Both the position numbers and the translations under genes were made by a program. From positions 276,061-340,060 of the forward strand of contig NZ_JAJOZS010000003.1 of the NCBI RefSeq assembly GCF_021168555.1: a stretch of 64,000 nt of DNA, written 5' to 3'. This DNA is from Stenotrophomonas sp. MMGLT7. GTDB taxonomy: Bacteria; Pseudomonadota; Gammaproteobacteria; Xanthomonadales; Xanthomonadaceae. This document shows positions 2,458-38,643 of the stretch, one piece after another; the stretch's first letter is position 1; every line of letters starts with the position of its first letter. A model generated the notes under the pieces. It saw only the letters and a list, made by a program, of their open reading frames with translations, made no database searches and was not told the DNA's origin.

Positions 2458-2531
2458 CCGTAGGAGCGACTTCAGTCGCGATGGGGCTTTACCGGTGGAG
2501 CCCCGTCGCGACTGAAGTCGCTCCTACGGGC
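2458..2531. repeat. REP-type palindromic element (GTAGGAGCGACTTCAGTCGCGA … TCGCGACTGAAGTCGCTCCTAC)
   Basis: Two ~24-bp inverted copies flanking a ~26-bp loop; same unit recurs at 13990, 35910, 38572 and (variant) 13151. Confidence 0.8.
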
Positions 2532-9774: not shown

Positions 9775-9807
9775 GGAACGCGGCTCCGGCCGCGTTCCTT
9801 GTTTGTG
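9775..9807 (+). terminator. rho-independent terminator after nuclease gene
   Basis: ggaacgcgg-ctccgg-ccgcgttcc perfect 9-bp stem followed by TTGTTTGTG. Confidence 0.6.
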
Positions 9808-9913
9808 CATGGCAACAAGCCGACGGGCTGAAGAGGGTGTTGCGCCGCAGGAGGGCTTTGCCGTCGCGGTTCCTTACCATGCGCATTCCTATCATTTGAA
9901 ACTTCCTGCCAGG

Positions 9914-11017
9914 ATGCAGCCCGCAATGACCGTTGCCGCACAGTTCCAGATCGATTTCCTGCAGTACCTCGACGCAGACGGGCAGCGCGTCGGCCAGGCC
10001 GCGCCATCGGCCTTCGCCGACCCGCAGCTGCTGCTGCCCCTGTTCAAGCAGATGCTGGCCGCGCGCGTGTTCGACGCCAAGGCGGTGGCGCTGCAGCGCA
10101 CCGGCAAGCTGGGCACCTATCCTTCCGCGCTCGGCCACGAGGCCACCCACATCGGCATCGGCGCGGCCATGCGCCGGGGCGACGTGTTCGCGCCCAGCTA
10201 CCGCGAGATCGGCACGATGTTCGCGCGCGGCGTGCGCGGGCGCGACGTGCTGCTGTACTGGGGCGGCGACGAGCGCGGCAGCGACTTCCCGCGCGAATCC
10301 GACGCCGCGCGCGACTTCCCGTTCTGCGTGCCGATCTCCACCCAGTGCCTGCACGCGGCCGGCGCGGCGCTGGCGTTCAAGCTGCGCGGCGAGCCGCAGG
10401 TGGCGGTGACCTGCTGCGGCGACGGCGGCAGTTCCAAGACCGACTTCTACGCCGCGCTGAACTCGGCCGGCGCCTACACGCTGCCGCTGATCCTGTGCGT
10501 GATCAACAACGGCTGGGCGATCTCGGTGCCGCGCGCGGCCCAGACCGGTGCGCAGACGCTGGCGCAGAAGGGCATCGCCGGCGGCCTGCACTGCCTGCAG
10601 GTGGACGGCAACGACCTGATCGCGGTACTCGAGGCGATGCACCGGGCGCGCGAGCGCGCGCTGGCCGGCGACGGCGGCAGCGTGATCGAGTTCCTCACCT
10701 ACCGCCTGTCCGACCACACCACCGCCGACGACGCCCGCCGCTACCGCGACGAGGCCGAGGTCAAGGCGGCGTGGGCACGCGAGCCGATGATCCGCCTGCG
10801 CCGCTACCTGACCGCGCAGGGCGTGTGGGACGAGCAGGCCGAGGCCGCCTGGAAGGACGAATGCGCCGCCCGGGTGGACGAGGAGGTCGACGCCTACCTG
10901 GCCACGCCGGTGCAGCCGGTGGCGGCGATGTTCGACCACCTGTATGCCGACCCGCCGCCGGAACTGCTGGCCCAGCGCGCCGCGGCCATTGCCCTGGAGG
11001 AGCAGCGCCATGGATGA
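9914..11017 (+). CDS. 2-oxoacid dehydrogenase E1 component alpha subunit (TPP-dependent; branched-chain/acetoin type)
   Basis: TPP-binding motif …CCGDGGSSKTDFYAALNSAGAYTLPLILCVINNGWAISVP…; start chosen at MQPAM (9914) rather than ORF-track 9803. Confidence 0.85.
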   Translation: MQPAMTVAAQFQIDFLQYLDADGQRVGQAAPSAFADPQLLLPLFKQMLAARVFDAKAVALQRTGKLGTYPSALGHEATHIGIGAAMRRGDVFAPSYREIGTMFARGVRGRDVLLYWGGDERGSDFPRESDAARDFPFCVPISTQCLHAAGAALAFKLRGEPQVAVTCCGDGGSSKTDFYAALNSAGAYTLPLILCVINNGWAISVPRAAQTGAQTLAQKGIAGGLHCLQVDGNDLIAVLEAMHRARERALAGDGGSVIEFLTYRLSDHTTADDARRYRDEAEVKAAWAREPMIRLRRYLTAQGVWDEQAEAAWKDECAARVDEEVDAYLATPVQPVAAMFDHLYADPPPELLAQRAAAIALEEQRHG

Positions 11018-12095
11018 GATCCGCCACAAGAACGCCCCGCTCGACGCCGCCGACGCCGCCGCCCACCACGCCGCCAGCACGCCTGCGGAGGCCCCGATGA
11101 ACACTGCCGCCACGACCACGCCGATCACACTGATCGAGGCCGTCACCCAGGCGCTGGCCTGGGAACTGGAGCACGACCCGTCGGTGCTGGTGCTGGGCGA
11201 GGACGTGGGCGTGAACGGCGGCGTGTTCCGCGCCACCGCCGGGCTGCAGCGCCGGTTCGGCGCCGAGCGCGTGCTCGACACCCCGCTGGACGAGACCACC
11301 ATCGCCGGCCTGGCCGTGGGCCTGGCCGCGCAGGGCATGAAGCCGGTGGCCGAGTCGCAGTTCGACGGTTTCGTCTACCCGATGGTGGACCACCTGGTCA
11401 GCCACGCCGCGCGCCTGCGCAACCGCACCCGCGGCCGTCTGCACTGCCCGATGGTGCTGCGGGTGCCGTGGGGCGGCGGCATCCGCGCCCCGGAGCACCA
11501 CAGCGAGGCCAACGAGAGCCTGTTCACCAACGTGCCCGGCCTGCGCGTGGTGCTGCCGTCCAGCCCGCAGCGCGCCTACGGCCTGCTGCTGGCCGCCATC
11601 CGCGATCCCGACCCGGTGGTGTTCTACGAGCCCAAGCGCATCTACCGCCAGTACAAGGAAGTGGTGGCCGACGACGGCGAGGCGCTGCCGCTGGACGTGT
11701 GCTTCGTGCTGCGCGACGGCAGCGACGTGACCCTGGTGGCGTGGGGCGCGCAGGTCAAGGAGGCGCTGGAGGCGGCCGACAGGCTCGCCGGCGAGGGCAT
11801 CAGCGCCGAGGTCATCGACGTGGCCACGCTGCGGCCGCTGGACTTCGACACCATCGCCGAATCGGTGGCGCGCACCGGCCGCTGCGTGATCGTGCAGGAA
11901 GCCCCGCGTACCGCCGGCTTCGGCGCCGAGATCGCCGCGCGGCTGGCCGAGCAGTCGATGTACGACCTGCTGGCACCGGTGCAGCGCGTCACCGGCTACG
12001 ACACCCATATCCCGCTGTTCCGGCTGGAGATGAAGTACCTGCCGAGCGTCGAGCGCATCGTCGCCGCGGCCAGGCGCGCGCTGGAACATGCTTGA
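11011..12095 (+). CDS. 2-oxoacid dehydrogenase E1 component beta subunit
   Basis: Transketolase-like pyrimidine-binding and C-terminal domains (…VLGEDVGVNGGVFRATAGLQRRFG…ESQFDGFVYPMVDHLV…); ATG overlaps E1alpha stop (ATGGATGA). Alternative start MNTAATTT at 11098 possible. Confidence 0.85.
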
Positions 12096-12459
12096 CGGGA
12101 TGGCATACGCGCGTGTGGTGAGCGCGCATCGCGCACCGCAGCGCCCGCCCATCCGCATCGCCCCGGGCGATGCGGTGACACTGGGCGAGCGCGACACCGA
12201 CTGGCCGCAGTTCGTCTGGACCACGCGGGCCGATGGCCTCGGCGGCTGGGTCCCGGCGGCGCTGTTCGACGCCGCGCGCGGCCCGGCGACGGCGTTGCAG
12301 GTCTACGACACCCGCGAACTGGATGCCGACGCCGGCGAGCTGCTGGCCCTGCAGCACGAGCTGGCGGACTGGTGGTGGGCGCGCAACGCGCGCGGCGACA
12401 GCGGCTGGATCCCGGCGCGCGTGCTCGCCCCCGCCACGGACGCCGGCGCGGCACCATGA
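12088..12459 (+). CDS. small conserved-looking protein between E1beta and E2 (possible SH3-like fold)
   Basis: 123-aa ORF overlapping E1beta stop by 8 nt; GD.V.L…W……GW.P motif; could also be a chance ORF in high-GC DNA. Confidence 0.4.
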   Translation: MLDGMAYARVVSAHRAPQRPPIRIAPGDAVTLGERDTDWPQFVWTTRADGLGGWVPAALFDAARGPATALQVYDTRELDADAGELLALQHELADWWWARNARGDSGWIPARVLAPATDAGAAP

Positions 12460-12528
12460 CCTGACCCCTATCCTGGCCGCCGCGCCGACGCCGGCGGCCC
12501 ATCACCCCCTCCACTTGCCGAGACATCC

Positions 12529-13950
12529 ATGAGCCAGACCAAGAACTTCCGACTGCCCGACCTGGGCGAAGGCCTGCCCGACGCCACCATCGTCGAGTGG
12601 TTCGTCAAGCAGGGCGACAGCATCCGCCTGGACGAGCCGCTGGTCTCGATGGAGACCGCCAAGGCGGTGGTCGAGGTGCCCTCGCCGATCTCGGGCACGG
12701 TGCTCAAGCTGGCCGGCGCGCCGGGCGACGTGATCGTCACCGGCGCGGTGCTGGCGCAGTTCCAGCCCGACCCGAACCTGCCGCAGCGCGCCGAGGGCCA
12801 GGACACCGGCCACGGCCACGGCGCCGGCGAACCGGACCAGGACGCTCCGGCGCAGGCGGCGGCCAGCGACGACGGCGGCCGCCTGGACGAGCGCCCGGCG
12901 CCGTCGCAGGCGCGCGGCGGCATCGACGCGGACCAGGAGCGCGGCGCCGACGCCGGCACCGTGGTCGGCGCGATGCAGGCCTCCGACAGCGTGCACAGCG
13001 AGCGCAGCGTCGCCGTCGGTGGCGTGCGCGCGATGCCGGCGGTGCGCGCGCTGGCCAGGAAGCTGGGCGTGGACCTGGCCCGGGTGCAGCCCAGCGGCCC
13101 GGACGGCACCGCCACCCTGGCCGACGTCAAGCGCGCCGCCGCGGCGGCCCCTGCAGGAGCGACTTCGGTCGCGACCGACGCAGGGGGGAGTTCGGCGGCC
13201 CGCGAAGAGCTCGCGACCGAAGTCGCTCCTGCGGGGGAGAGCCGGCGTTCGCGTACGCCGCTCTCCGCCGCCGGGCGTCCCATGCGCACCCAGCCGCCGG
13301 GCGTGGCCGCCAGCGGCCAGCCCGAGCAGCTCAAGGGCGTGCGCCGCAACATGGCGCGGGTGATGGCCGAGGCGCATGCGCAGGTGGTGGCGACCACGGT
13401 CAGCGACGATGCCGACATCCACGCCTGGACGCCGGGCAACGACGTCACCGCGCGGCTGGTGCGGGCGATCGTGGCCGCCGCGCGCGCGGTGCCGGCGCTC
13501 AATGCCTGGTTCGACGGCGCCGCGCTCACCCGCACCCTGCACCCGCAGGTGGACGTCGGCATCGCCGTGGATACCGACGACGGCCTGTTCGTACCGGCGC
13601 TGCGCAATGCCGACATGCTCGACGCGCGCGGCGTGCGCGAAGGCGTCGACCGCCTGCGCCGGCAGGTGGCCGATCGCAGCATCGCCGCCTCCGAGCTGAC
13701 CGGCTACACCATCTCGCTGAGCAACTTCGGCATGTTCGCCGGCCGCTACGCCACCCCGATCGTGGTGCCGCCGTGCGTGGCCATCGTCGCCGCCGGCCGC
13801 GCCCGCCACCAGATGACCCCGGTGATGGGCGGGGTGGAGGCGCACCGGGTGATCCCGCTGTCGCTGACCTTCGACCACCGTGCCGCCACCGGCGGCGAGG
13901 CGGCGCGCTTCCTGCGCGCGATGCTCGACGACCTGGCGCTGCCGGGCTGA
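12529..13950 (+). CDS. dihydrolipoamide acyltransferase (E2) with single lipoyl domain, E3-binding domain and catalytic domain
   Basis: Lipoyl motif VSMETAKAV, E3-binding AMPAVRALARKLGVDL, catalytic …DHRAATGGEAARFL…; contains in-frame REP in linker (see next feature). Confidence 0.85.
   Translation: MSQTKNFRLPDLGEGLPDATIVEWFVKQGDSIRLDEPLVSMETAKAVVEVPSPISGTVLKLAGAPGDVIVTGAVLAQFQPDPNLPQRAEGQDTGHGHGAGEPDQDAPAQAAASDDGGRLDERPAPSQARGGIDADQERGADAGTVVGAMQASDSVHSERSVAVGGVRAMPAVRALARKLGVDLARVQPSGPDGTATLADVKRAAAAAPAGATSVATDAGGSSAAREELATEVAPAGESRRSRTPLSAAGRPMRTQPPGVAASGQPEQLKGVRRNMARVMAEAHAQVVATTVSDDADIHAWTPGNDVTARLVRAIVAAARAVPALNAWFDGAALTRTLHPQVDVGIAVDTDDGLFVPALRNADMLDARGVREGVDRLRRQVADRSIAASELTGYTISLSNFGMFAGRYATPIVVPPCVAIVAAGRARHQMTPVMGGVEAHRVIPLSLTFDHRAATGGEAARFLRAMLDDLALPG
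13151..13234. repeat. REP-type palindrome embedded in-frame inside E2 inter-domain linker
   Basis: ctgcaggagcgacttcggtcgcga…(36 bp)…tcgcgaccgaagtcgctcctgcgg; translated as …PAGATSVATDAGGSSAAREELATEVAPAG…. Confidence 0.7.
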
Positions 13951-13989
13951 GCACCCGCGCAGCCTCCCCGCAGGAGCGCCGTAGGGGCA

Positions 13990-14071
13990 CCGTAGGGGCA
14001 CCGTAGGAGCGACTTCAGTCGCGATGGGGCTCTACCGGTAGAGCCTCATCGCGACTGAAGTCGCTCCTACA
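13990..14071. repeat. REP-type palindromic element preceded by tandem CCGTAGGGGCAC x2
   Basis: ccgtaggagcgacttcagtcgcgatggggctctaccggtagagcctcatcgcgactgaagtcgctcctac; intergenic between E2 and VOC gene. Confidence 0.8.
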
Positions 14072-14146
14072 GGCGATCCCAGGCTCCGGGGCTGCCGCGG
14101 GGGTGCCGCCGCTACACTCGACATACACCTTCGACGGAGCAGCGCC

Positions 14147-14530
14147 ATGGCCCACCGCAGCCGCCTTGCCGGTTTCATCATCGATTGCCAGGGCGGCGAC
14201 CACGAGGTCGCCGCCGACTTCTGGAGCCAGGCGCTGGGCCTGCCGCGCGGGGCAACCTACGCCGACGGCGACGCCCGCTACACCGAACTGACCGGTGCGC
14301 CGGCGGCGCTGAACATCGAGGTGCAGCAGGTCGGGCATCCCTCGCGCGTGCACCTGGACATCGAGGCCGACGACATCGACGCCGAGGCCGCGCGGCTGGA
14401 GAAGCTCGGCGCGCGCCGCATCGGCTTCGTCAAGCGCTGGTGGGTGATGGAAGCGCCCAGCGGCCAGCGCTTCTGCGTGGTGCGGATGAAGCATCCCGAA
14501 CGCGGCGCCGAACCCAGCACCTGGGAATGA
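14147..14530 (+). CDS. VOC-family (glyoxalase/bleomycin-resistance fold) protein
   Basis: 127-aa ORF; glyoxalase-like pattern (GFIIDCQGGDHEVAADFW…VHLDIEADDIDAEAARLEKLGA). Confidence 0.7.
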   Translation: MAHRSRLAGFIIDCQGGDHEVAADFWSQALGLPRGATYADGDARYTELTGAPAALNIEVQQVGHPSRVHLDIEADDIDAEAARLEKLGARRIGFVKRWWVMEAPSGQRFCVVRMKHPERGAEPSTWE

Positions 14531-35909: not shown

Positions 35910-35990
35910 GTGTAGGAGCGACTTCAGTCGCGATGGGGCTCTACCGGTAAGGCCTCATCACGACTGAAGTCGCTCCTACGTCGTTCCTAT
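35910..35990. repeat. REP-type palindromic element
   Basis: tgtaggagcgacttcagtcgcgatggggctctaccggtaaggcctcatcacgactgaagtcgctcctacg; between opgB-like and mscK-like genes. Confidence 0.8.
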
Positions 35991-36038: not shown

Positions 36039-38516
36039 CTATTCCCGGCCGCCGCCGTCCCTGTCCTGGTGCACCTCGCCGACGATGCGGATGTCCTGCG
36101 GCGTGGCCAGGGCGATGTGCTCCTCGGCCAGGGCCTCGAGCAGGCGGAAATACAGGTCGCTGCGCACCCCGTAGACGTTGCGCGGACTGGAAACATAGGC
36201 GAACGAGTTGATCGCCACCTGTCCGCCGGCGATCGAATCGATGAACACCGACGGCGCCGGCTCGTCCAGCACGCCCGGGTGCTCGGCATAGAGAGCCAGC
36301 AGCAGCTCGCGCACCCGTCCCACGTCGCTGCCCAGCGGCAGCGAGAACTGGATCTGCACGCGCCCCAGCGGGCTGGACATGGTCATGTTGCGGATGGTCT
36401 TGGTGATCAGCTCGGAGTTGGGCACGATCAGCGTCGACTTGTCGGCCACCTGGATCTCGGTGGAACGCACGCTGATGCGGCGGATGTCGCCCTCCTGGTC
36501 GCCGATCTTGATCCAGTCGCCGATCTTCACCGGCCGCTCGGCCATCAGGATCAGCCCGGAGACGAAGTTCTGGGTGATCGCCTGCAGGCCGAAGCCGATG
36601 CCCACCGACAGCGCGCTCACCATCAGCGCCAACTTCTCCAGCCCCAGCCCCAGCGCGGTCAGCGTCCACAGCGCCACCAGCGCGATGCCGAGGTAGCGCG
36701 CCACCGTGGCGATGGACGACTTGGAGGAGGCGTCCAGTTCGGTCTTGGGCAGGTAGGTGTCCACCAGCCAGCGCTGGATCACCTGCATCAGCCCCAGGCC
36801 CACCGCCAGCACGATCAACGCGCGCAGCAGGTCGCCCGGCATCAGCTTGAGCTTGCCGATCTCCAGGCCGTTGTTGGCGATGTCCATCCAGCCGAACAGC
36901 GTGGAGAAGTTGGAGCCGAACGGCTGCAGCACCGCACTCAGCCCGAACACCAGCAGCATGATGCGCAGCACCGCCGACAGCAGCACCCCCGCCTGCTCCA
37001 TGTGGCTGGGCCGCAGCCCCAGCGCGCTGTTGGCGGCGCGACCGAAGCGGCTGTCCGGGGCGAACAGCCAGCGCGAGAAGTCGTCGGCGAACATCGTCAG
37101 CACCGCCAGCGCGCCGAGCACCACCGCCACCCAGATCACCTGGCGGGTGGCGAACAGGGCGAAGTCGACATAGCCGGCCAGCACCGCCACCAGCGCCACG
37201 GCGACCACCAGGTTGACCACCAGCGCCACCAGCACCACGACCGAGCTGCGGCGCTGCGGCGCGGGCGCCGGTTCGCCCTCGGCGGCCGGCGCGTCCTGCG
37301 CCGGCGGGCGGTGCAGGCGCAGCAGGCTGGCGATCATCGCCATCACCAGCAGCGCGAACGCCAGCGCCACCGCACCCTCCACCACCAGCGTGGTGGAGGC
37401 ACTGGTGCGCCCGGCGCGGTTGATCAGCAGGACCAGCCCGCTGATCCAGGCCAGCAGCGCGGTGGCTCGCGCATAGCGGCGCAGCCGCACCGCGGTGGCG
37501 TCGTCGATCGGCAGCAGCCGCCACGACGGCTGGTTCGGCATCAGCAGGCTGGCGCTGACCGCGCTGATCAGCGCGGACAGCACGCTGATGAGGACGAAGT
37601 TGCCCGCCAGCAGTTCCAGCCGCGGCGGCAGCGCGCCGATCCCGAGCAGCGCCTGCACCACCAGCGCCGCCGCCAGGCCCGGCATCAGCGTGCGCACCAG
37701 CAGTTGCCACAGCGCCAGCCCCGACCGCCGCAGCCGGCTGCCCGGCGCATTGCGGCTGGCGGCGTAGCGCCGGCCCAGCCAGCGCAGCAGCTGGTTCAGC
37801 GGCCACAGCAGCAGCGCCGCCGCCACCAGCTCGGCCAGCGGCAGCATCCAGCCGTCCTTGGCCACGCCGCTGCGGATGCCGTCGGCGACCACGCCGTACA
37901 GCGCCCGCAGACGCTGCAGGTCGTCCGGGAACTGCTGCCCGACCTGCCGCCAGGTCGAGGCCGCCAGCGGCGAGGAATAGCGCCGCGACAACTGCGCGCC
38001 CAGGCGCTGGCCGAACTCGCGCTCGATGGTGGCGTTGAGCTGCTGTGCCTCAACCTTCAGCAGGCCGGCGCGCTTGATCTGCGCGTCGACCTCGCTGCGC
38101 TGCTTGTTCAGCTCGGCGCGGCGGGTGGTCAGTTCCCGCGCCTCGGTGGTGCCGTCCGCGGCCGCGCCCAGCTGCGCCAGCCGCGCATCGAGCTGGTCGC
38201 GCTCCGGCGTCAGCGAACGCTCCACCGACTCGGCGTCGCGCTGCGCCGCCAGCACCGTGTCGCCCAATCCGCGCAGCGCATCCTGGTCGTCGGTGTCGTC
38301 CAGCTGCTTCTGCACCGTGGCCAGCGCCTTCTCGGCCTGGTCGAGCAGCGCCACCGGATCGGTGTCGGCCGCATCGTCCTGCACCTGCGCCAACGCCGGC
38401 ATCGCCAGCAGCAGCCAGCCGCACAGCAGCAGCCACGCGTACAGGCGGCGACGGAGGGGAGATTCGGGGATCAGGCTCGGCACGGGCTTGGGCAGGCTCA
38501 CGGGAGGAGCCGGCAT
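36039..38516 (-). CDS. mechanosensitive channel MscK/KefA family (large MscS-type)
   Basis: 825 aa; signal + long periplasmic coiled-coil region, 11 TM, C-terminal MscS core (…GLQAITQNFVSGLILMAERPVKIGDWIKIGDQEGDIRRISVRSTEI…). Confidence 0.85.
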   Translation of the reverse strand: MPAPPVSLPKPVPSLIPESPLRRRLYAWLLLCGWLLLAMPALAQVQDDAADTDPVALLDQAEKALATVQKQLDDTDDQDALRGLGDTVLAAQRDAESVERSLTPERDQLDARLAQLGAAADGTTEARELTTRRAELNKQRSEVDAQIKRAGLLKVEAQQLNATIEREFGQRLGAQLSRRYSSPLAASTWRQVGQQFPDDLQRLRALYGVVADGIRSGVAKDGWMLPLAELVAAALLLWPLNQLLRWLGRRYAASRNAPGSRLRRSGLALWQLLVRTLMPGLAAALVVQALLGIGALPPRLELLAGNFVLISVLSALISAVSASLLMPNQPSWRLLPIDDATAVRLRRYARATALLAWISGLVLLINRAGRTSASTTLVVEGAVALAFALLVMAMIASLLRLHRPPAQDAPAAEGEPAPAPQRRSSVVVLVALVVNLVVAVALVAVLAGYVDFALFATRQVIWVAVVLGALAVLTMFADDFSRWLFAPDSRFGRAANSALGLRPSHMEQAGVLLSAVLRIMLLVFGLSAVLQPFGSNFSTLFGWMDIANNGLEIGKLKLMPGDLLRALIVLAVGLGLMQVIQRWLVDTYLPKTELDASSKSSIATVARYLGIALVALWTLTALGLGLEKLALMVSALSVGIGFGLQAITQNFVSGLILMAERPVKIGDWIKIGDQEGDIRRISVRSTEIQVADKSTLIVPNSELITKTIRNMTMSSPLGRVQIQFSLPLGSDVGRVRELLLALYAEHPGVLDEPAPSVFIDSIAGGQVAINSFAYVSSPRNVYGVRSDLYFRLLEALAEEHIALATPQDIRIVGEVHQDRDGGGRE

Positions 38517-38571: not shown

Positions 38572-38643
38572 CTGTAGGAGCGACTTCAGTCGCGATCGGG
38601 CCTCACCGGTGAAGCCCGATCGCGACTGAAGTCGCTCCTACGG
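38572..38643. repeat. REP-type palindromic element
   Basis: tgtaggagcgacttcagtcgcgatcgggcctcaccggtgaagcccgatcgcgactgaagtcgctcctacgg. Confidence 0.8.

Follow-up and report, generated by a model that had tools for sequence, protein, structure and literature searches.

An in-frame REP doublet in the E2 acyltransferase tether of Stenotrophomonas sp. MMGLT7, and the recurrence of REP palindromes in the E2 linkers of Lysobacteraceae

In E2 chains of the 2-oxoacid dehydrogenases, the peripheral-subunit-binding domain is joined to the catalytic core by a flexible, Ala/Pro-rich tether. Di Nocera, De Gregorio and Rocco (2013, PMC3733652) described repetitive extragenic palindromic (REP) sequences of the GTAG and CGTC types inside genes. 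The majority of these inserts are dimers that contribute 20-30 aa, and the authors suggested that intragenic REPs could be neutral because they lie in flexible linkers or loops. Two E2 subunits of Opitutus terrae appear in the supplementary list of that survey: Oter_4191 (2-oxoglutarate dehydrogenase E2), with a REP at aa 190-204 of 443, and Oter_4192 (dihydrolipoamide acetyltransferase), with a REP at aa 127-142 of 481. Rickettsia palindromic elements (RPEs) likewise lie in frame in protein genes, as the same paper summarises (PMC3733652). The subject of this report is a REP doublet read in frame within the E2 (dihydrolipoamide acyltransferase) gene of Stenotrophomonas sp. MMGLT7, an event of an already known kind, catalogued in 2013 and in E2 subunits of another phylum. 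The window analysed is a stretch of 64,000 nt (NZ_JAJOZS010000003.1, 276,061-340,060), and coordinates below are positions within it.

The inverted repeat inside the E2 open reading frame (ORF) consists of two 27-nt arms, 96% complementary, on either side of a 36-nt spacer (Table 1). It measures 90 bp as a whole palindrome and 80 bp head to head, neither of which agrees with the ~84 bp given by the initial annotation of this DNA. Each arm holds one REP unit, composed of a head tetranucleotide, GAGCG, a 5-bp stem with a 4-nt loop (GCGAC-TTCG-GTCGC) and GA; the short imperfect palindrome typical of the GTAG class, a 5-13-bp stem with a small loop, is thus present in both units, and the two inverted units with their short spacer and single long hairpin have the arrangement of a REP doublet forming hairpins (REPIN). 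The predicted RNA hairpin of the segment has an energy of -79.2 kcal/mol (z = -7.4). A 19-nt core, GGAGCGACTTC[A/G]GTCGCGA, occurs in the window as five inverted pairs (2463/2524, 13156/13229, 14006/14067, 35915/35976 and 38577/38638). Ten arm matches with no more than three mismatches were counted, as compared with 0.05 expected, and none of 100 shuffles reached ten. Four of the five pairs are intergenic, such that the family is dispersed within the 64 kb in the manner of the GTAG class; the pair within E2 consists of two exact 19/19 core matches in inverted orientation. The initial annotation had reported a REP palindrome inside the E2 ORF of the same family as four intergenic sites; its presence there and the shared core are confirmed.

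The repeat encodes aa 208-237, which Pfam places between the E3-binding domain (PF02817) and the catalytic core (PF00198), not in the lipoyl-to-E3-binding linker to which the element had been assigned at first. This stretch has the properties of a linker, lying between two folded domains and aligning in columns that are highly variable among orthologues. The peptide originally quoted for it is the true in-frame translation, and the window E2 protein is 100% identical to the deposited NCBI protein of Stenotrophomonas sp. MMGLT7; candidate tryptic peptides from residues 208-237 are AAAAAPAGATSVATDAGGSSAAR and EELATEVAPAGESR. The tether comprises about 36 residues, 30 of them encoded by the REP doublet, and its composition is Ala/Thr/Ser/Gly/Glu/Val. 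Over the segment, GC content at third codon positions (GC3) is 20/30 (67%), whereas the remaining codons of E2 reach 426/443 (96%; Fisher p = 9e-7), from which we conclude that the segment is non-native DNA. The spacer is low in GC3 as well (8/11 codons), and linker 1 of the same protein, between the lipoyl and E3-binding domains, stands at 97%. Arms and spacer both look non-native, with a codon usage not yet adapted to the E2 gene.

The genic copy is not identical to its intergenic counterparts. The four canonical copies measure 68 nt head to head and have GTAG heads, TTCA loops and a conserved 24-nt spacer with a small hairpin of its own. Both arms of the genic copy have GCAG heads in place of GTAG and TTCG loops in place of TTCA, and its 36-nt spacer is unrelated to the 24-nt one. 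The GT(A/G)G head that defines the GTAG class is therefore absent from both genic units, whereas GTAG is found in 8/8 intergenic arms; the genic copy is a derived or degenerate member of the class, one base off the head rule. The spacer conservation expected of REPINs, which the four intergenic copies display among themselves, does not extend to it. Of the initial proposal that the same REP occurs in the gene and between genes, the shared core stands and the identity does not. A search with the spacer by BLAST-short against the window and all loci gave nothing beyond chance. No direct repeat of the kind left by target-site duplication in miniature inverted-repeat transposable elements was seen in the flanks read immediately outside 13148-13237. 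A scan of 12400-14300 found no terminator-like site and no promoter, and an Rfam scan of the same interval returned only sub-threshold matches to generic hairpins (36.6 bits vs a gathering score of 79).

The reading frame bears on how such an element can be carried within a gene. One frame of the canonical copies opens with TAG, from the GTAG head, and a second meets TGA in the right arm. The third (GTA-GGA-GCG, V-G-A-T-S-V-A ... A-T-E-V-A-P) is open in the arms, with a stop in the 24-nt spacer in seven of eight copy/orientation readings. Stops interrupt nearly all six frames of the canonical doublets, whereas none of the six frames of the genic copy contains one; E2 reads the V/A-G-A frame, giving small flexible residues. 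As a separate observation, it is precisely the two symmetric substitutions of the genic copy that abolish the TAG and TGA carried by the arms, although neither stop would lie in the E2 frame.

Orthologues of the E2 gene numbered at least 571; 80 orthologous loci were fetched from Lysobacteraceae genomes and 82 E2 genes were compared, with loci labelled L001 and onward. We denote the lipoyl-to-E3-binding interval linker 1 and the interval from the E3-binding domain to the catalytic core linker 2, and call an inverted repeat with a score of at least 15 a strong palindrome. Linker 2 holds such a repeat in 20/82 genes. In total, 20 strong palindromes were found in the 14.0 kb of linker 2 vs 4 in the other 101 kb of the 82 genes; those four all lie at nt 299-318 from the gene start, within linker 1 (L040, L050, L064 and L081), and none was found in the folded domains of the 82 genes. 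Of the 162 strong palindromes yielded by a stricter scan of 1.66 Mb of loci, eight occupy a frame that is open and high in GC3, and 8/8 of these are in E2, in a sample that by design includes E2 82 times and its syntenic neighbours likewise.

At least seven repeat families, at differing offsets, were recognised in the E2 linkers: family A (GTAGGAGCGGCTTCAGCCGCGA; L003, L005, L011, L008); family A', with a GCGAC stem (the window, L071, L035); family B (GTAGGAGCGCCGGAAGGCGCGA; L040, L050, L069); family C (GTGGGAGCGGCGGGAGCCGCGA; L076); family D (GTAGGAGCGGGCCCTGCCCGCGA; L016, L022, L026, L039); family E (L046, L064); and families F (CCCCTCTCCC...GGGAGAGGGG) and G, which are non-GTAG. The distance from a conserved DVK motif to the insert varies from family to family, which requires several independent events. 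The family found in a linker often has further copies elsewhere in the same locus. Many orthologue linkers translate to REP-like peptides, which was confirmed in the DNA, and, among the GTAG/GTGG-type REPs of orthologues for which the linker-2 peptide was read, all give V/A-G-A...; 44/82 linkers have no REP signature. Mean linker length is 60.4 aa with an intact palindrome vs 53.5 aa without any REP signature. This gain is modest even though the linker elements encode 19-39 aa, which argues that REPs replace linker more than they extend it. Head loss as a typical feature of genic copies was considered and rejected: GCAG heads account for 3/41 in E2 linkers vs 7/116 outside them.

The history of the site can be followed in the nearest relatives. 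Only one protein in a set of 5.8 billion sequences, P0002 (85% identity), is more than 77% identical to the window E2; its DNA is locus L001. From DVK to PMRT the linker is 56 aa in the window vs 49 aa in L001. The L001 sequence differs, retaining one minus-strand REP unit, GTGGGAGCGGCGTCAGCCGCGA, where the window has its right arm. The clean ~84-bp indel that had been expected between close relatives was thus not found, the nearest orthologue differing by seven codons and carrying other sequence at the site. Because that linker is only seven codons shorter, the element makes up most of the MMGLT7 linker and is not an addition to it; the earlier suggestion of a mobile palindrome tolerated as linker is supported, and that of extra linker length is not. 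In a neighbour-joining tree of 309 conserved residues, drawn without support values, the sister group of the window and L001 is a clade of L002, L003, L005, L008, L011 and L014. In all six members of this clade the corresponding site holds a family-A doublet, intact or as a relic, whose 16-nt spacer is shared, and their right arms (or relics) align column for column with the window right arm. Hairpin z-scores descend in strength from -10.8 (L003) through -9.4, -7.5 and -5.3 to +0.2, -0.5 and -0.6 (L002, L014, L001). The peptide at this position is VAAE(A/V)AP in L002, L003, L008, L011 and L014, VTAEAAP in L005 and IAADAAP in L001. The window's own peptide in REP-free orthologues would count against a REP origin, as the initial annotation had recognised; no orthologue has it. 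The exact A' unit of the window is absent from the other 1.6 Mb of related loci, and a metagenome scan recovered five contigs with the exact GCAG/TTCG 22-mer, each as a single arm and never as the symmetric pair.

Two further changes were observed in the tethers of this clade. Just upstream of the perfect family-A doublet of L003 is a GCT/TCT-rich tandem tract of (A/S) repeats (VAASAAASASAS; L003:10598-10636), perhaps the product of an independent slippage expansion within that tether. In L008 (Xanthomonas sp. AmX2; L008:10427-10508), an 18-nt insertion (CCGGGTGGCCCAGGGCCA) splits the left REP unit of the family-A doublet; it forms a small hairpin of its own and keeps the reading frame.

Table 1. 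Positions of the palindrome within E2, its host gene and domains, the intergenic REP doublets and the neighbouring operon genes in the window.
Feature	Coordinates	Strand	Description
Left arm	13148..13174	+	REP unit GCAGGAGCGACTTCGGTCGCGA at 13153-13174; encodes (P)AGATSVA
Spacer, 36 nt	13175..13210	+	Encodes (T)DAGGSSAAREE(L)
Right arm	13211..13237	-	REP unit, minus strand, 13211-13232; encodes (L)ATEVAPAG
E2 (dihydrolipoamide acyltransferase) gene	12529..13950	+	From ORF list; Pfam PF00364, PF02817, PF00198; 473 aa, ORF intact
Lipoyl domain, aa 6-77	12544..12759	+	Pfam PF00364, E = 5e-15
E3-binding / peripheral-subunit-binding domain, aa 166-200	13024..13128	+	Pfam PF02817, E = 1.9e-11; directly 5' of repeat
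Catalytic (2-oxoacid dehydrogenase acyltransferase) domain, aa 266-465	13324..13923	+	Pfam PF00198, E = 4e-48
Canonical REP doublet	2460..2527		68 nt; between MarR gene and thioredoxin-like gene
Canonical REP doublet	14003..14070		68 nt; starts 53 nt past E2 stop codon; upstream of glyoxalase-like gene
Canonical REP doublet	35912..35979		68 nt; between convergent sulfatase and MscS-type channel genes
Canonical REP doublet	38574..38641		68 nt; between channel gene and TSCPD-domain gene
E1-alpha gene	9803-11017		Operon member; NCBIfam TIGR03181 cut-off passed
E1-beta gene	3' end at 12095		Operon member
SH3-like ORF	12088-12459	+	123 aa; SH3_2 domain, E = 2.8e-9; between E1-beta and E2

The operon is ordered E1-alpha, E1-beta, SH3-like ORF and E2, with E2 last. 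S. panacihumi has a gene call equivalent to the SH3-like ORF (L002:3651-4004); L001, the nearest relative, has a 183-nt gap where the window has this ORF. Elsewhere in the window, the MscS/MscK-type channel gene (36039-38516, minus strand) is flanked on both sides by doublets of the same REP family as that in E2.

The survey of orthologues also yielded observations on the repeats themselves. In linker 1, in-frame GTAG/GTGG REP doublets are located at L040:10297-10366, L050:1101-1180, L064:10298-10368 and L081:10316-10383, and single REP units in L022, L026, L062 and L068; in L040, L050, L064 and L081, one and the same gene carries REP-type palindromes in linker 1 and in linker 2. The non-GTAG family CCCCTCTCCC-n-GGGAGAGGGG occupies linker 2 in L009, L028, L030, L032, L049, L052, L054 and L055, and further in L072, L073, L077, L081 and L082. 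It is translated as LLPSPxGRGxGGEG ... PSSALRAPSPEGRRE or as PSPQPLSxGERGS, its hosts are Pseudoxanthomonas, Lysobacter, Luteimonas and some Stenotrophomonas, and apparent relics of it are present in L023, L034, L044 and L063. In the linker-2 doublets of families D and E (L016, L022, L026, L039, L046, L064), the left and right arms belong to distinct REP subtypes (GCGGGC...GCCCGC and GCGCGC...GCGCGC, respectively, in one example), each with its own small hairpin, and the long hairpin is mismatched; the same left/right asymmetry was observed in Pseudoxanthomonas and in a metagenome-assembled genome (MAG) of Luteimonas. Two loci under titles of other taxa, L047 (Nocardiopsis yanglingensis) and L076 (a Chitinophaga pinensis MAG), have an E2 operon of Lysobacteraceae type, and the linker peptide of L047 is identical to that of genomes of the S. 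maltophilia group; both are probably contaminating contigs or mislabelled bins.

What the repeat is, where it lies and in which frame, its foreign composition, its recurrence among orthologues and the loss of the hairpin in relatives are observed; how it got there, its replacement of an older REP and its neutrality are inferred. We consider it likely that the segment within E2 is a REPIN-type doublet of a family dispersed in the genome, carried in frame in the E2 tether, passively tolerated there, and that it overwrote an older REP. The order of events would be as follows. REPs would arrive by mobilisation of the type mediated by REP-associated tyrosine transposases (RAYT), or by recombination with other copies, and selection would purge them from coding DNA save at positions in the protein where nearly any flexible stretch is acceptable. 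Both E2 linkers would be positions of this kind, in which REPs could accumulate and then decay into ordinary-looking Ala/Pro/Thr linker. An older family-A REP, with a GCGGC stem, may have been present in the linker of the common ancestor of the window lineage and its sister clade; in the MMGLT7 lineage it would then have been overwritten, by re-insertion or gene conversion, with the family now dispersed there. The evidence fits passive tolerance, with the element supplying a flexible tether and nothing more.

Several points weigh against this account. The two private substitutions (GTAG to GCAG and TTCA to TTCG) are common to both genic arms and present in 0/8 intergenic arms, so that simple copy-and-paste of a canonical element is insufficient, and a variant source, arm-to-arm copying or selection on pairing is needed; the changes fit either the use of one arm as template for the other in place or a variant source outside the sample. 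The genic spacer differs from that of every other copy. The insertion event was inferred and not observed, no clean presence/absence indel against a close relative having been found. The AlphaFold2 model of E2 (27-sequence alignment), finally, has a mean predicted local distance difference test (pLDDT) score of 44, too poor to confirm independently that the linker is disordered; the lipoyl domain was poorly modelled also. A less conventional reading is that E2 tethers are actively rewritten, with REP relics recruiting an active REP/RAYT system or gene conversion, and with a hairpin that might transiently tune E2 translation or mRNA cleavage. This reading is consistent with the symmetric private arm changes and with the positional homology to an older REP; we nevertheless think it improbable. 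Were it true, the coding sequence of a housekeeping enzyme would be repeatedly regenerated from selfish DNA.

Related to this is the possibility that the linker is a preferred landing site, in which a resident REP or its relic would attract RAYT cleavage and strand transfer or gene conversion from other copies, so that the REP family currently active in the genome would keep rewriting the linker. We regard such site-directed colonisation as unlikely, and it overlaps with the tolerance explanation, since tolerance would still be required. The window doublet sits exactly where the relatives hold an older REP of a related family, with right arms that align, and L001 keeps one REP unit there; L040, L050, L064 and L081 have REP doublets in both linkers, the peptides of two families adjoin in one linker of L069, L075 and L070, and heterodimers of family A and family A' arms occur in metagenome contigs (L085). 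However, families F and G are non-GTAG yet are found in the same linker, so that the target preference of one transposase cannot explain all cases; the position after the DVK motif varies by family, more than half of the linkers (44/82) are free of any REP signature, and the survival of inserts at a tolerant site would lead one to expect the same distribution.

An adaptive role for the hairpin in mRNA or DNA, where a stem at the domain boundary slows ribosomes while upstream domains fold or serves as an RNase III or decay point that sets E2 dosage, appears very improbable; the translational pausing raised in the initial annotation is one form of it and is likewise disfavoured. The near-perfect 27-bp stem, at -79 kcal/mol and z = -7.4, speaks for it, as do the location of all strong palindromes of the 82 E2 genes at domain boundaries and the private changes common to both arms, which are compensatory and preserve pairing. 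Yet protein tolerance alone predicts the boundary position, and copying of one arm from the other explains the shared changes equally well. In the sister clade the hairpin falls to shuffle background while the peptide motif is kept in several of the same genes, and over half of the orthologues have no hairpin at all, which together argue against a conserved RNA role; nor was there an Rfam family at gathering score, a terminator or a promoter. That the segment is native linker resembling a REP by coincidence, or an artefact of assembly, can be considered effectively refuted. Chance similarity is elevated in Ala-rich, GC-rich linkers and the VAAEAAP motif of the relatives could pass for native sequence, but that motif is encoded by exact copies of REPs dispersed in the relatives' genomes, two exact inverted 19/19 core matches stand against 0.05 expected at up to three mismatches, and GC3 is sharply unlike that of the rest of the gene. 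Against an artefact, frame and flanking sequence on either side are undisturbed, and the identical protein is on deposit in NCBI. Passive tolerance of a mobile element in a permissive tether is the explanation we favour.

The comparative series is of more value than the single element: within one orthologous gene of a bacterial family, the two linkers have captured at least seven repeat families, in every state of preservation between a perfect palindrome and Ala/Pro linker no longer recognisable as one. It provides a natural series for following non-coding selfish DNA as it becomes ordinary coding sequence, for gauging the real sequence freedom of E2 tethers, and for estimating the rate at which a REP hairpin decays when only the peptide is constrained. 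A practical consequence is that REP-like peptides (VGATSVAT...ATEVAPT, LLPSPxGRGxGGEG) in real proteins need not be annotation errors. The literature searched contained no description of repeated colonisation and turnover of the E2 linker pair by many REP families in Lysobacteraceae, and the portions of PMC3733652 considered here report neither multi-family recurrence in one orthologous linker nor replacement of an older REP.

When compared with RAYT-mobilised REPINs and the REPs of Stenotrophomonas (PMC3686654), the window family is alike in having two inverted units in which a short palindrome follows a 5' tetranucleotide head, and in its many dispersed copies, mostly intergenic and near the 3' ends of genes. 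The genic copy departs from them in its head, GCAG as opposed to the defining GT(A/G)G, and in its atypical spacer, and none of the 13 S. maltophilia classes of that paper (SM1-SM13; Nunvar et al. 2013, PMC3686654) corresponds to the window REP. The closest parallel is the catalogue of PMC3733652, which, in the entries used here, likewise contains GTAG-type REP dimers wholly inside ORFs, of ~15-30 residues, with E2 subunits as two of the hosts; those entries give insert positions only, without mapping them to domain boundaries. The Opitutus terrae cases, as listed, differ in phylum and in REP family, and in MMGLT7 both heads are mutated to GCAG. RPEs are longer and are described mainly as additions to protein surfaces, not as replacements of interdomain tethers. 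Their sequences are probably unrelated to those described here and they belong to another host lineage; the likeness, following the summary in PMC3733652, is that of selfish palindromes surviving in functional ORFs by way of a tolerated peptide, and RPEs are a functional analogue only. Unlike typical E2 linkers, finally, the MMGLT7 tether is mostly repeat-derived, is written in non-native codons, and is made up of Ala/Thr/Ser/Gly/Glu/Val instead of Ala/Pro.

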